Below are positions 3,181 through 10,352 of a stretch of DNA of 10,359 bases, one piece after another (the first letter of the stretch is position 1; each line of letters begins with the position of its first letter). The notes below the pieces were generated by a model. It ran no database searches, was not told the DNA's origin, and saw nothing but the letters and a program-made list of their open reading frames with translations. The stretch lies in the IMG/VR virus record IMGVR_UViG_3300000357_000164, one strand, 5' to 3'. A program made the position numbers and the translations under genes. Source of the stretch: a virus (Duplodnaviria > Heunggongvirae > Uroviricota > Caudoviricetes).

Positions 3181-3315
3181 GGGATTTTCTCGTTGAAAGG
3201 TGTTGTCAAGAAAGTGACTACGGAATNNNNNNNNNNNNNNNNNNNNNNNNNNNNNNNNNNNNNNNNNNNNNNNNNNNNNNNNNNNNNNNNNNNNNNNNNN
3301 NNNNNNNNNNNNNNN

Positions 3316-3615: not shown

Positions 3616-5745
3616 TCATGCCGCGATGTCCGCGTTGTTCACTTCCACCTTCACACTGTCAATCAGCAGCGTATATGTCGCCGCCTTTGATATGCCTGTC
3701 AGTTGCAGTTTGTCCGCCGCCCCTGATGCCGGAGATTTCACCAGTGTGAACGGCGTCCCCCGTTTCTCATCCAGTACCGGCGTCACCTGAATGCTGTTGT
3801 TTCCGGCAAACTCAAAAGCCAGTGTGTGCCATCCGTTATCAAAGACCCCGAACGTTTCCAGCTTCGCATTCGGCTTCTTGTGGTGCATCGCGTTCAGGTT
3901 CGTCGCATCCGTCTGCAGAAAGAAGGACATCAGCATGTCGTTGCCTTCCTCTGCCAGCGTCACTCCCTCNNNNNNNNNNNNNNNNNNNNNNNNNNNNNNN
4001 NNNNNNNNNNNNNNNNNNNNNNNNNNNNNNNNNNNNNNNNNNNNNNNNNNNNNNNNNNNNNNAACTGCCAGTAAATGCCCAGGGCAAACTGATTCGGCAC
4101 CAGTGAACCCGGCAACTTAAACCGTACGCTCACACGTCCCCCCTTCTTCAGTAACTCCACTCCCTGTCCGGCTGCATCATGCTCCAGAAACCAGATGTGG
4201 TTTTCCGGTTTATTCAGTTGCAGGGCCTTACCTCCCGTAGCCCCCGCATCACTGACCACCGCTTCAGCAATGTTTTTGTTAACATTGTCTCCGCTCGCCG
4301 GTTTGTGATAATAGCGCCAGCCCTGTGATGCCAGGTCTTCGCCGGACGCCAGCAGACTCATCAGGGTTCGGTTACTGACCGGGGCTTCCGGCTCTCTCTC
4401 CGTACCTTCACCGGAAGGTCCGGTGGGCTTCACCGTATCAGGCTGTTTTCCGGTAATGAATTCAGCGTTTCTCCCGGCATGCACAAGAATCGCCGTTGCC
4501 AGACGGTCGGAAATAATCCCACGACGTGCCCATGATCCAAAATGCGTTTTACGGTCAGCCGTCGTCCAGGTTTTGGCGTCCGTTCGACCACCGGCTCCGT
4601 AATACCCAATATCCGCAACATCCGGATCTTCTGACGGCTCGTTGGTACCCACATTTCGCCCGTTTTCATCCGTCATAAACGGCACAAAGAAGNNNNNNNN
4701 NNNNNNNNNNNNNNNNNNNNNNNNNNNNNNNNNNNNNNNNNNNNNNNNNNNNNNNNNNNNNNNNNNNNNNNNNNNNNNNNNNNNNNNNNNNTGCGGATTT
4801 CGTCTTGTATGCACCATACACCGCATCGTATTGCGAAGAATAAGTCTGCTTCCAGTAGTAGGTCGTGTCGCCACAAATCCAGGGAACCGATGACGGAGAG
4901 CCCCCGAGACACTGACCTCCGAATTCCGACAGGTCAGAACGATATTTTTCCACCATGGAATCAAACAGCCCCGGCTGGGTGGCGTATGCACCCTGTTTCA
5001 AATCAAACTCGCCCTGCATCCAGACCACTGCAAGCAGAATATTTTTAGGGTTGGCCTTCAGTGCGGCCTGAGTACGGGTAAGCAGGTCCTTGTACAGTGG
5101 CTTATCTACACCCCAGCGTGCCGAGGTCTCGCTTGCGCCGGTGGATTCGCTGAAGGTACCTTCATCGCCCGCCAAAAATGCAGAACCACCACGGCAGCAC
5201 GGAACCAGAAGAATACCGGCATTCGCCGGAATAAACGGCAACAATTTCTTCGCGATATGTAATCCCTGCCCCACGCATCCATACTGAGCTGCACTGGCTT
5301 TCGGGTGTGAAAACTTACTCAAATCCTGAACATCATGCAGGCAGTGGTCCGCAGGAATAATGTCATTGTAGTTACAGAACGCACCACCCGGCGTGACAGT
5401 GCTGCGACGCGCCAGCTGTTTAATACGCGGGTCCGGACGGTCATATGTCTCCGGCAGCGGAAGCCCTTCACCATACGCCATACCGTTTGACTGCCCGGCC
5501 AGGGCAACAACAAAGTAATACTCCGGGTTGCTGGTGGTGCTGATAACTGCGCCTTCTCCATCCGACGGCTTCACCACCACAGGTGTGGTGACATCACCTT
5601 CCGCCGCAATGGCCTGCATCAGGGTATAAGGCGTGATGGCCACCGGACTGCCAAATGGCTGCCACCCCTCCTTCAGTTTTTGTGTCAGTCGTTTCGCAAG
5701 GTCTGACGGCGATGCCGCCCTGACAACATCATAGTGTTTAAATGC
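3616..5745 (-). CDS. nanS-p: NanS-p-type phage sialate 9-O-acetylesterase (SASA/DUF303 esterase domain with C-terminal lectin-like region), interrupted by masked blocks
   Basis: Large minus-strand coding region with the SASA esterase GQSN motif (VALAGQSNGMAYGEG) and surrounding similarity to prophage NanS-p/YjhS-like esterases as recalled. The N-terminal part (AFKHYDVVRAASPSDLAKRLTQKLKEGWQPFGSPVA) resembles the DUF1737 region. The start lies inside N block 5746-5849. The coding frame differs on each side of N blocks 4693-4791 and 3970-4062 (three track ORFs: 4666..5964, 3960..4991, 3616..3963). Stop TGA at 3616-3618. Confidence 0.8.
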
Positions 5746-6017
5746 NNNNNNNNNNNNNNNNNNNNNNNNNNNNNNNNNNNNNNNNNNNNNNNNNNNNNNN
5801 NNNNNNNNNNNNNNNNNNNNNNNNNNNNNNNNNNNNNNNNNNNNNNNNNATTCTTTAAAATACCTGACATGTAATACAGAAAAAACACAAAACCATACCT
5901 TAAATAAAAACCTCATCATCAAGCAGATATGCATGGATAAACTACAAGACGAGATATAAACCACCCTGCATTTAAATAAACAATAAACAACATCAGAAAA
6001 ATAATTCTGCTCTATGG

Positions 6018-6044
6018 TTTACATTCAAAAATATCATTTATACT
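6018..6044 (+). promoter_or_regulatory. sigma70-like promoter candidate (TTTACA-15 nt-TATACT) upstream of plus-strand small ORF
   Basis: -35-like TTTACA at 6018-6023 and -10-like TATACT at 6039-6044, in very AT-rich DNA about 40 nt upstream of ATG 6085. The spacer is 15 nt, which is short, so this is a hexamer match only. Confidence 0.35.
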
Positions 6045-6084
6045 TTTCAGAACATCACCAGCAAGACATAAACAAGGAAACTAA

Positions 6085-6245
6085 ATGAAGTGGATTGTGA
6101 TTGATACAGTTATCCAGCCATCATGCGGAATATCTTTTTCAGTCATATGGAGTAAAATAAAATTAATAATCTGGTATCAATCGGATGCTTTCTTACCTCC
6201 TGAAAGTATATTTACACTGACTCACACAGGTATCATGCTCAATAA
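6085..6245 (+). CDS. small hypothetical protein on the strand opposite the late operon (partial; runs into masked block)
   Basis: ATG at 6085 with SD AAGGA (6074-6078, 6-nt spacer). Translation [53 protein letters not shown]... continues into N block 6246-6336; the track ORF ends at 6348. AT-rich codon usage with 5 ATA codons in 53. Confidence 0.4.
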
Positions 6246-6475
6246 NNNNNNNNNNNNNNNNNNNNNNNNNNNNNNNNNNNNNNNNNNNNNNNNNNNNNNN
6301 NNNNNNNNNNNNNNNNNNNNNNNNNNNNNNNNNNNNTGCTACCTGTAACCATTTACAACGTAGCACCATTCAATAAAACATTCTGGAATTTAATCAAAAA
6401 CAGCCAGGAATGTCCTACAAATACAGATAACGTATTGAATGAATGCTTTAATAACCGTTGCACTCTGCAAATATG

Positions 6476-6509
6476 TCCTTATGGACTAAAACAACAAAGT
6501 CCATAAGGA
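6476..6509. repeat. perfect 12-bp inverted repeat with 10-nt spacer (hairpin or palindromic binding site)
   Basis: TCCTTATGGACT (6476-6487) and AGTCCATAAGGA (6498-6509) are exact reverse complements; spacer AAAACAACAA. No clean U-tract follows on either strand. Confidence 0.6.
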
Positions 6510-6521
6510 GTTTACTCACAT

Positions 6522-6562
6522 CTGACAAAATCAATATAAACAGCCCCTCCGGAGAGGGGCTG
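6522..6562 (-). terminator. rho-independent terminator for minus-strand transcription
   Basis: Perfect 9-bp GC-rich stem CAGCCCCTC (6541-6549) / GAGGGGCTG (6554-6562) with a 4-nt loop. On the minus strand the hairpin is followed by TTTATATTGATTTTG (complement of 6522-6540). Confidence 0.55.
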
Positions 6563-6883
6563 GAGAGTGGCGCTATGTGCCATTGCATGGTGCCGGGTGC
6601 CTCCCGGTGAATTCAGTACCAGCACCTGAATCCGCGATTATCCCATATACCTACTCGCTGATTGCCCCTCCGCACNNNNNNNNNNNNNNNNNNNNNNNNN
6701 NNNNNNNNNNNNNNNNNNNNNNNNNNNNNNNNNNNNNNNNNNNNNNNNNNNNNNNNNNNNNNNNNNNNNNNNNNNNNNNNNNNNNNNNNNNNNNNNNNNN
6801 NNNNNNNNCCCCGCAAACCAGACAACAGTCAACCGCCTGAATTGTGAAGTATTTAAAAATTTCTCCCGCTAACTGATACCCGG

Positions 6884-7404: not shown

Positions 7405-7517
7405 TACTTAACAGAACTTTTATTTTTGACAAACATAAAATATTTTCAACAATATCCTGAGCCAGGTATATTTCAGTATAAGGCTCTGCCGGAAGGAATC
7501 TGGAAGAATGAATATAG

Positions 7518-7591
7518 CGCGCTGTACTGGATTCGAACCAGTGACCGATTGCTTAGAAGGCAATTGCTCTGTCCGGCTGAGCTAACAACGC
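7518..7591 (-). tRNA. tRNA-Arg (anticodon UCU), phage-borne; 3' CCA not encoded
   Basis: Minus-strand sequence GCGTTGTTAGCTCAGCCGGACAGAGCAATTGCCTTCTAAGCAATCGGTCACTGGTTCGAATCCAGTACAGCGCG folds as a cloverleaf: 7-bp acceptor stem with one G-U, D arm GCTC/GAGC, anticodon loop CTTCTAA, T arm with GGTTCGAATCC. It resembles E. coli argU-type tRNA. The discriminator is followed by CTA rather than CCA. Confidence 0.85.
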
Positions 7592-7691: not shown

Positions 7692-7767
7692 TGGTGGCCC
7701 TTGCTGGATTTGAACCAGCGACCTGGCGATTATGAGTCGCTCGCTCTCACCACTGAGCTAAAGGGCC
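7692..7767 (-). tRNA. tRNA-Ile2-like (anticodon CAU, ileX/ileZ-type; could formally be Met)
   Basis: Minus-strand sequence GGCCCTTTAGCTCAGTGGTGAGAGCGAGCGACTCATAATCGCCAGGTCGCTGGTTCAAATCCAGCAAGGGCCACCA (76 nt, CCA encoded) is near-identical in architecture to E. coli ileX tRNA as recalled. Anticodon loop CTCATAA. Confidence 0.88.
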
Positions 7768-7883
7768 GGGAGCAGAATAATAACNNNNNNNNNNNNNNNN
7801 NNNNNNNNNNNNNNNNNNNNNNNNNNNNNNNNNNNNNNNNNNNNNNNNNNNNNNNNNNNNNNNNNNNNNNNNNATTAATTCCG

Positions 7884-7991: not shown

Positions 7992-8971
7992 TTACCTAGT
8001 TACCTTTTTTAACTGCCGCTCAGCCCATGCTTCTTCAATATCAAACCGGGTCACCAGCGCATCATAGAATTTCTTAACTGTTTTTTCCCATGACGCGCGT
8101 GTTATCTGGTTTGTCACCTCGCATATAGCATTAAATGCCTCCGTTGATGGTAGTCTTTCATAGCCACGACCACCACAACGCTGGCAGTCTCTGATAACAG
8201 GCATACCACGTTTTACCGACTCTTCACGATGAATGGCGACACCACGCCCACGGCAATCCTTACAGGCGGTGGAAACCTCACCCTTTCCGCCACACTCNNN
8301 NNNNNNNNNNNNNNNNNNNNNNNNNNNNNNNNNNNNNNNNNNNNNNNNNNNNNNNNNNNNNNNNNNNNNNNNNNNNNNNNNNNNNNNNNNNNNNNNNNNN
8401 NNNNNNNNNNNNNNNNNNNNNNNNNNNAAGACGAATACACACCTTTCGTACACTTTGCCCATACCGGCGGCTTACCATCCGGATACTGGACCTTGTTTGT
8501 AAAAACTACGCTTTCAATAAATTTTTCCCCATAGCAACAAGGGCACTGCTTTTTACTCGCTGCGCTGCGGGCATAATCCTCAAAAGCGTACGAAGCCATA
8601 ATGCGCATCACTACCGGTTTTATTTCTGCCGGAAGTTTTCTCAACGCCGCCACANNNNNNNNNNNNNNNNNNNNNNNNNNNNNNNNNNNNNNNNNNNNNN
8701 NNNNNNNNNNNNNNNNNNNNNNNNNNNNNNNNNNNNNNNNNNNNNNNNNNNNNNNNNNNNNNNNNNNNNNNGTTGCCCGCGCCCTGTCATTCATACTGAT
8801 GCCCATTTTCCCCAGGAACGCAGAAAAACCCATCTCAGCCCGATTCTGTGTCATGCCCTGCGCGGCCATCACATCAGTGATACTCAGCGCATCTTTTGAC
8901 GTTGAGGCCGATGCATCGGTCAGGCCAGGGGATTTTGGGGAGTAGTATTTCGGTAAATCTTCCAGTTTCAT
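7992..8971 (-). CDS. Q: late-gene antiterminator Q (lambda Q family), interrupted by two masked blocks with an apparent frame change
   Basis: N-terminus MKLEDLPKYYSPKSPGLTDASASTSKDALSITDVMAAQGMTQNRAEMGFSAFLGK parallels lambda Q (MRLESVAKFHSPKSPMMSDSPRATASDSLSGTDVMAAMGMAQSQ...). Mid-region MASYAFEDYARSAASKKQ matches LATFAYADYCRSAATPGA. The C-terminal part in a different frame (7992..8297: CKDCRGRGVAI...DCQRCGGRGYERLPS...WEKTVKKFYDALV...KKVTR) matches the lambda Q zinc-finger and C-terminus. ATG at 8971 with an AGG-containing SD. Confidence 0.8.
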
Positions 8972-9686: not shown

Positions 9687-10352
9687 CTAACGTCTTTTCC
9701 TGGAGTGGGGGCTGTTGCTGGTGGACGTGNNNNNNNNNNNNNNNNNNNNNNNNNNNNNNNNNNNNNNNNNNNNNNNNNNNNNNNNNNNNNNNNNNNNNNN
9801 NNNNNNNNNNNNNNNNNNNNNNNNNNNNNNNNNNNNNNNNNTCAGTATGCTGGTGGCAGTCTGTTCTCCCGGTACGATGTCACTCTCACGGTATACGGAG
9901 CGGATTTTTTCCACCGGTAATCCCAGTGAACGACACAATACAGACTCCGGAAGCGCATCAGCCACCTGATTGCAGACCGCCCACCAGGATAATTCGGCCA
10001 GCGATAACTCCCTCTCCTGCGTACCGCTGATTGCGTGACGGATGNNNNNNNNNNNNNNNNNNNNNNNNNNNNNNNNNNNNNNNNNNNNNNNNNNNNNNNN
10101 NNNNNNNNNNNNNNNNNNNNNNNNNNNNNNNNNNNNTGCTGACAAGTTTTGGTGAGCAAGTTGCTCAAGTGATTCTGAGGTCTGGTCACACAACTGGTTG
10201 TCGCAGTGCCAGCACAACACCATTGCGCCGGTACCATAACGGTGAATGACGGTTTCACTGTGGTGATAATCACCGTGTGGCCACTGGCAGGATTTAATAT
10301 GGCGCAACAGCCAGTCAGACAGTGCACCAGCGCCGCCAGCAGCACGAATCAC
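9687..10352 (-). CDS. nin-region ORF(s), partial and interrupted by two masked blocks; may be two genes
   Basis: Open minus-strand frame with Cys/His-rich segment HIKSCQWPHGDYHHSETVIHRYGTGAMVLCWHCDNQLCDQ, a middle segment ...ELSLAELSWWAVCNQVADALPESVLCRSLGLPVEK..., and a basic C-terminus TSTSNSPHSRKRR (NinE-like tail). N blocks 9730-9841 and 10045-10136 hide the junctions. The other frames have shadow-like composition. The frame is still open at the window edge, so the start may lie beyond it. Confidence 0.35.
   Translation of the reverse strand: MIRAAGGAGALSDWLLRHIKSCQWPHGDYHHSETVIHRYGTGAMVLCWHCDNQLCDQTSESLEQLAHQNLSAXXXXXXXXXXXXXXXXXXXXXXXXXXXXXXXIRHAISGTQERELSLAELSWWAVCNQVADALPESVLCRSLGLPVEKIRSVYRESDIVPGEQTATSILXXXXXXXXXXXXXXXXXXXXXXXXXXXXXXXXXXXXXXTSTSNSPHSRKRR

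Follow-up and report, generated by a model that had tools for sequence, protein, structure and literature searches.

IraL is a small prophage-carried protein that keeps the stress sigma factor RpoS from being degraded and was described in the uropathogenic Escherichia coli strain CFT073 by Hryckowian et al. 2014 (PMC4045071). Deletion of iraL in CFT073 lowered log-phase sigma-S and shortened its half-life from about 5 min to about 2.5 min, and a construct carrying the native promoter restored stability (PMC4045071). The protein copurifies with RssB and, unlike IraM, gives a two-hybrid signal with the RssB N-terminal domain only; RssB binding and log-phase sigma-S stabilization were shown experimentally for the CFT073 and S. 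sonnei alleles (PMC4045071). [quoted passage not shown] More IraL is found in a fur mutant (PMC7157518), and a shift from 23 to 37 °C raises iraL mRNA by 1.6 log2 (PMC12890032). Expression of the related IraM of K-12 (YcgW/ElbA, b1160) is switched on through PhoPQ when cells are starved of Mg2+, and the protein contacts both domains of RssB (PMC4045071, PMC10844676). Its published fold is PmrD-like (PMC10844676), the complex of IraM(1-78) with RssB is available as PDB 8TWD, and the C-terminal tail was removed from the crystal construct as flexible and less conserved (PMC10844676).

The DNA analyzed here, referred to as the window, is a stretch of 10,359 nt from a tailed phage (Caudoviricetes) recorded in IMG/VR. 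A sequence-only reading had flagged in it a self-contained plus-strand unit with its own promoter, antisense to the late operon, and had proposed a moron that is expressed in the lysogen. We are highly confident that this unit, at window 6018–6506, is iraL, which a lambdoid prophage carries as a lysogenic-conversion gene (moron). The gene had been named and characterized before; the reading did not recognize it and thus rediscovered it. The unit and its upstream DNA carry the following features.

5973 to 5989, minus strand: PhoP-box-like direct repeat TGTTTATTGTTTATTTA, matching 11 of 12 specified positions, −79 to −63 from the transcription start (candidate site).
6018 to 6023, plus strand: −35 hexamer TTTACA, read directly and identical in CFT073.
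6039 to 6044, plus strand: −10 hexamer TATACT, read directly, identical in CFT073 and invariant in 84 loci.
6052, plus strand: transcription start (A), mapped onto the window by alignment with the CFT073 5' RACE result, 7 nt past the −10 hexamer.
6074 to 6078, plus strand: Shine-Dalgarno sequence AAGGA, read directly, 6 nt 5' of the ATG.
6085 to 6506, plus strand: iraL coding sequence for 111 aa, in which the N run at 6246–6336 stands for 5 nt, so that window coordinates overstate its length.

Comparison of the window protein with IraL (c1429) of CFT073 revealed identity at 110 of 111 residues. The sole exchange is at residue 65, with Ala in the window and Val in CFT073; Ala is also the IraM residue at this position and represents the minority allele among the iraL loci (12 of 84). 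At the DNA level the two alleles are separated by a handful of substitutions, and identity to CFT073 iraL is at least 95% across the whole coding sequence, the threshold by which iraL alleles are recognized (PMC4045071). Both loci share the −35 and −10 hexamers, the leader and Shine-Dalgarno sequence and the antisense orientation, with Q, the ileZ and arg tRNAs and DUF3927 on one side and a nanS-p-like gene and the holin on the other. CFT073 differs by Val65, G instead of A at −1 and two leader substitutions at +15 and +31. In CFT073 nanS-p is also truncated, and the vicinity contains an IS200 and a third tRNA.

The homology and structure search of the full ORF, which the sequence-only reading had suggested as a check, returned IraL and IraM homologs. 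The protein scored 162.4 bits against the NCBIfam IraM model NF007393 of the IraM/IraL/RssC anti-adaptor family (cut-off 121), spanning residues 1–110 of 111, and its residues 1–78 matched the sequence of PDB 8TWD_A (IraM) with E = 2e-32. An AF2 model, built from a shallow alignment of 13 sequences and of low confidence (pLDDT 51), shows an order of strands and helix that fits a PmrD-like antiparallel beta-barrel with a flanking helix. Foldseek with this low-confidence model ranked 8TWD_A first (E = 9e-6), followed by the PmrD entries 2RQX, 4HN7 and 2JSO, in agreement with the published IraM fold. The domain resources disagree with one another: hmmscan against a local Pfam-A copy assigned no family to the window protein even at E up to 10, whereas precomputed tables list PF11183, which we take to be PmrD, for every family member.

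RefSeq names the ORF 'anti-adapter protein IraM', and this name, the match to the IraM subfamily model and the label 'RpoS stabilizer during Mg starvation' given to the homolog in some Stx2 phage records might point to IraM proper, that is, a PhoP/PhoQ-induced anti-adaptor of Mg2+ starvation that is silent in ordinary growth. The PhoP-box-like repeat at 5973–5989 could be taken in the same direction. It is the single such match in the window, although 0.10 would be expected by chance, a figure that is not negligible, and as it sits in an AT-rich tract we regard it as a candidate site and a lead only. A canonical PhoP box overlapping the −35 hexamer was rejected, as one half-site only (GGTTTA at 6016–6021) is found there. 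We judge IraM proper to be very improbable. The window protein is 63% identical to K-12 IraM over 107 aa, compared with 99% identity to IraL, and IraL is active in log-phase cells that are not stressed, its contact with RssB being confined to the RssB N-terminal domain (PMC4045071). An orthologue of K-12 b1160 would be at least 95% identical to K-12 iraM and lie adjacent to e14, where the gene order is icdC-iraM-ycgX; the window protein reaches 63% and lies in a lambdoid late region. Moreover, the DNA upstream of iraL cannot be aligned with that upstream of K-12 iraM. IraL and K-12 IraM nevertheless have in common the PmrD-like beta-barrel, the four conserved C-terminal Cys and CPYG, the RssB anti-adaptor function and AT-rich genes with many ATA codons; they differ in that the K-12 gene adjoins the e14 attachment site and is not within a late operon, and in that IraL carries a 4-residue C-terminal extension (QQSP). 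A search for a Fur box upstream of iraL gave a best match of 11/19, not above the window background, and the effect of Fur on IraL is probably indirect.

The identification as iraL also allowed the promoter to be placed against experimental data. The pair TTTACA-15 nt-TATACT, the AAGGA with its 6-nt spacer to the ATG at 6085–6087 and the N-terminal peptide were all read in the window exactly as the sequence-only reading had given them. The window contains this exact hexamer pair a single time, with about 0.02 occurrences expected by chance, a figure that is indicative only since the pattern was chosen post hoc. With its spacers limited to 16–18 nt, a generic promoter scan passes over the pair; its two other plus-strand matches, at 5977–6005 and 6136–6163, are without support. 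The reading had anticipated a transcription start near 6050, and the published 5' end ACATCACCAGCAAGGCATAAACAAGGAAACCA aligns with the window starting at 6052, with 2 mismatches across 32 nt. The resulting leader from 6052 to the ATG is 33 nt long and matches the +33 end point of the complementing fragment. For assignment of the regulatory region to iraL we used at least 96% identity to CFT073 DNA with a mapped start site; the hexamers are identical and the published start falls at 6052. Taken together, 5' RACE and complementation from the native promoter in CFT073 show for a 99%-identical allele the promoter-driven, Q-independent expression in the lysogen that had been proposed (PMC4045071). 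A reading made without tools had thus recovered a real, experimentally mapped promoter.

Transferred to the window, a sigma-70 promoter (TTTACA, 15 nt, TATACT) would start transcription at A6052, as shown for the CFT073 allele, and the 33-nt leader with AAGGA would direct translation of the 111-aa protein. Residues 1–78 are predicted by homology to 8TWD to form the PmrD-like beta-barrel of the IraM family. IraL would then bind the N-terminal receiver domain of the adaptor RssB, as shown for the 99%-identical CFT073 protein, and RssB would be unable to hand sigma-S (RpoS) to ClpXP. In an exponentially growing lysogen, sigma-S would be stabilized and expression of the general stress response would rise. 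That IraL raises RpoS in growing uropathogenic E. coli and Shigella, and so changes the stress wiring of the lysogen, is already published.

The right-hand limit of the ORF had to be revised. Both the sequence-only reading and the ORF list let it end at 6348 (6085–6348, 87 aa), and we rejected this version as a mask artefact, given that the in-frame TAA at 6346–6348 exists only because the mask is not length-faithful. The corresponding locus of E. coli MCJCHV-1 (L001) is 100% identical over window 5850–6245 and 6337–6675 and has 5 nt (CAAAG) where the window has 91 N at 6246–6336. From these identical flanks and the intact 336-nt coding sequence in 84 of 84 related loci, we infer that the masked nucleotides are CAAAG. 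With the real 5 nt, the ORF has 336 nt and encodes 111 aa, with its stop at window 6504–6506. The reading had conceded that an ORF ending a few codons past the block and lacking homologs would speak against it; the ORF continues to its full 111 aa and homologs are present. A minus-strand ORF at 6193–6369 was likewise rejected as a mask artefact. The same distortion applies to each of the masks, which are located as follows.

N-blocks 1 to 6: 1833–2032, 3227–3315, 3970–4062, 4693–4791, 5746–5849, 6246–6336.
N-blocks 7 to 12: 6676–6808, 7785–7873, 8298–8427, 8655–8771, 9730–9841, 10045–10136.

Compared with a genome identical in the flanks, 12 of 12 blocks are 76–97 nt longer than the sequence they replace (e.g. 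91 N for 5 nt and 89 N for 10 nt), and the real length of the window is about 9375 nt. As the blocks are longer than the hidden sequence, they distort reading frames, and neither ORFs nor frames can be followed across the masks.

Analysis of related loci revealed the iraL module in 1446 of 5426 complete E. coli genomes (27%), with up to 3 copies each and nearly all at at least 95% identity, in 253 IMG/VR contigs and in E. albertii. A scan of genome contigs returned 6 loci only, since Escherichia and Shigella are essentially the sole hosts of the family. The coding sequence is intact in all 84 loci compared, and its 9 synonymous and 3 non-synonymous variable sites indicate purifying selection on iraL. 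The −35 hexamer reads TTTACA in 68 loci and TTTATA in 8, and a 1-nt deletion (TTTA-A) is found in another 8; the 16 lesions of 84 (window 6022 and 6024; loci L013–L092) mark copies that may be weaker or silent. In the commonest allele, the −35 hexamer is directly followed by A rather than T. Such lesions, together with the −35 mutation in the second iraL copy of JJ1886 (PMC4045071), the presence of up to 3 copies in some genomes and the pseudogenized genes neighboring iraL in MCJCHV-1, could suggest a decaying or poorly expressed copy, in which a weak promoter with a 15-nt spacer in H-NS-silenced, AT-rich DNA leaves the host unaffected. For the window we consider this improbable, as its TTTACA/TATACT pair is intact and identical to the expressed CFT073 promoter and the coding sequence is intact, with the 9:3 pattern of its variable sites.

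The surroundings of the gene fit a phage cargo. In the window, the late region of a lambdoid prophage appears in reverse; starting at the right end and moving left, it carries DUF968, RusA, Q, the ileZ-type tRNA (CAT), tRNA-Arg (TCT), DUF3927, a hairpin and iraL, followed by a nanS-p-like esterase gene (DUF1737/DUF6645), DUF1378, DUF826, holin, lysozyme and Rz. The elements closest to the unit are given below.

5746 to 6540, plus strand: iraL cargo module, about 630 bp of real sequence, with its left edge hidden in the mask at 5746–5849.
6541 to 6562, minus strand: backbone G+C-rich hairpin of 9 bp with a 4-nt loop, T-tract on the minus strand only.
7517 to 7591, minus strand: tRNA-Arg (TCT), one in the window.
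7692 to 7767, minus strand: ileZ-type tRNA with anticodon CAT (ARAGORN; tRNA-Ile in RefSeq), linked to the iraL module and outside it.

The cargo is flanked by the beginning of the nanS-p-like late gene on one side and by the backbone hairpin on the other, and its equivalent of about 630 bp in MCJCHV-1 (L001 6477–7106) has no counterpart in 933W or phi296 by BLAST, both flanks being shared. The local G+C of 0.25–0.31 around the unit agrees with the AT-rich cargo described beforehand, and the iraL coding sequence itself has a G+C of 0.34 compared with 0.46–0.56 for the other annotated L001 genes. Of the features of a moron, the unit shows its own promoter, an atypical base composition and a patchy presence in otherwise syntenic phages. 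In 82 of 82 iraL-type loci, holin, nanS-p, DUF3927 and Q are encoded on the strand opposite to iraL, on the sides that they occupy in the window. The claim that iraL opposes every other gene in the window holds for the neighboring annotated genes and fails for one partial pseudo-ORF after iraL. This plus-strand pseudo-ORF, at window 6577–6700 directly after the hairpin, is named 'hypothetical protein, missing C-terminus' in RefSeq and belongs to a backbone segment homologous to the 933W stretch between stx2B and L0105. The nanS-p-like gene on the other side (window ~3700–5748, minus strand) is frameshifted in the L001 annotation and forms an intact 658-aa ORF in the window when the masks are filled from L001; the window and L001 differ by one indel within 4063–4692.

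Classical lambdoid morons expressed in lysogens (lambda bor and lom; stx) resemble iraL as autonomous small late-region units of atypical base composition that are present or absent between otherwise syntenic phages and confer a host phenotype. However, stx in Stx phages points the same way as the late operon and relies for the most part on Q read-through, whereas iraL is convergent with the late operon and promoter-driven; bor is antisense like iraL but encodes a lipoprotein. A location of iraL within the stx slot itself was rejected, since stx2AB of 933W lies one segment further towards the tRNAs and iraL adjoins that slot.

The hairpin at 6541–6562 is common to phi296 and lies at the exact right-hand boundary of the cargo, and is therefore not part of it. 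Judged by its structure and T-tract, it reads as an intrinsic terminator of transcripts from the late strand, the tRNAs and DUF3927; those of the tRNAs and DUF3927 probably stop here and do not continue antisense into iraL. It is also the only hairpin 3' of iraL, with its T-tract on the opposite strand. As no U-tract follows on the plus strand, it does not look like a canonical iraL terminator, and it probably serves as the 3' hairpin of the iraL mRNA as well. In the lysogen, this backbone hairpin would shield iraL from tRNA and late-strand transcription, while Q-modified polymerase would read through antisense into iraL after induction. Such an arrangement could also mean that the phage is the main beneficiary, with IraL tuning RpoS/RssB for lysogen stability or induction and antisense late transcription acting as the off-switch. 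An orientation and slot that are invariant in 82/82 loci, relatives of 60–77% identity in this slot, among them those that directly follow stx2B in Stx2 phages, and a late-strand terminator immediately upstream in the late direction are consistent with this proposal. We nevertheless regard it as doubtful, because the fixed orientation could be inherited from one ancestral insertion and the published phenotypes concern host stress physiology.

Relatives in the same position were found beyond the iraL alleles themselves. A protein search returned Escherichia clusters only, which grade from IraL through intermediates at 88, 77 and 70% to IraM at 64%. The 77% relative lies between stxB and nanS-p and is antisense to both, and a 60% relative occupies the same slot in a prophage without stx. 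By tblastn, relatives at 72–75% identity were detected in 41 Stx2 phage records (1717, 2851, Stx2a_WGPS and many Stx2c phages), and most of the listed records leave IraM/IraL-family genes unannotated. Family genes with 60–77% identity in the nanS-p slot, and the part of IraL considered below, are located as follows.

L096 (Stx2c phage 1717), 3501 to 3824: IraM/IraL-family gene.
L093, 3206 to 3541: IraM/IraL-family gene.
L094, 3173 to 3508: IraM/IraL-family gene.
L095, 402 to 728: IraM/IraL-family gene.
Window 6325 to 6506, plus strand: C-terminal tail, IraL residues 81–111.

The IraM-like ORFs of Stx2c and Stx2a phages (1717 gp43, 2851, Stx2a_WGPS, phiSTEC1575-Stx2k), which are 72–77% identical, resemble iraL in their slot immediately upstream of nanS-p, their antisense orientation and a promoter-like pair at the same aligned position. 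Unlike iraL, these uncharacterized ORFs directly follow stx2B, where the window has DUF3927 and no toxin, and carry different hexamers. With TATGAT or TATAAT at the aligned −10 position, a plausible −35/−10 pair is kept in the diverged relatives, which lends comparative support to a promoter at that position. Among what is added here to the published work is the exact position of iraL and its relatives within the late region of lambdoid phages, adjoining the stx slot, which may be of interest for studies on accessory genes of Stx phages.

The C-terminal tail of IraL contains Cys81, Cys92, Cys97 and Cys102, which are conserved without exception, as is the ICPYG motif, among 13 family members with identities as low as 52%. 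The AF2 pLDDT is below 50 across this tail and the Cys geometry is unreadable from the model; the conservation makes a metal or redox site at the four Cys possible. These observations can be joined into a broader reading, which we put forward as speculative and rather unlikely as a whole: IraM/IraL would be a lambdoid module of the nanS-p slot that acts as a lysogeny-coupled RpoS switch with an input through the Cys tail. By origin, and still for the most part today, the family would belong to lambdoid phages and occupy one fixed position just upstream of nanS-p, on the strand opposing the late operon; in Stx2c-type phages this position directly follows stx2B. Shielded by the backbone terminator, iraL would be on in the lysogen, and Q-antiterminated antisense transcription would shut it off after induction. 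Through the 4-Cys motif, a metal or redox signal could also feed in, one missed by the truncated crystal structure. If true, RpoS stabilization would be coupled to lysogeny.

The sequence-only reading had finally connected the codon usage of the ORF with the nearby tRNA. The count of 5 ATA codons among the first 53 is correct, and the complete iraL has 6 ATA among 13 Ile codons. A CAT-anticodon tRNA of the ileZ type reads AUA after lysidine modification, and the tRNA at 7692–7767 is identical at 76/76 positions to 933W ileZ, whose annotation gives AUA as the codon read, as well as to the CFT073 prophage copy. It accompanies iraL in 68 of the 73 loci with enough flanking sequence and is missing in the other 5. 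The proposed link thus stands insofar as an ileZ tRNA lies near an ATA-rich iraL, but K-12 iraM is equally biased (8 of 18 Ile codons are ATA) with no linked tRNA. Judged by codon counts, the bias looks like a property of the AT-rich iraL/iraM family, and an effect of ileZ supply on iraL translation is plausible, though not specific. The Arg tRNAs also vary in number, with one (TCT) in the window compared with two in 933W and CFT073.
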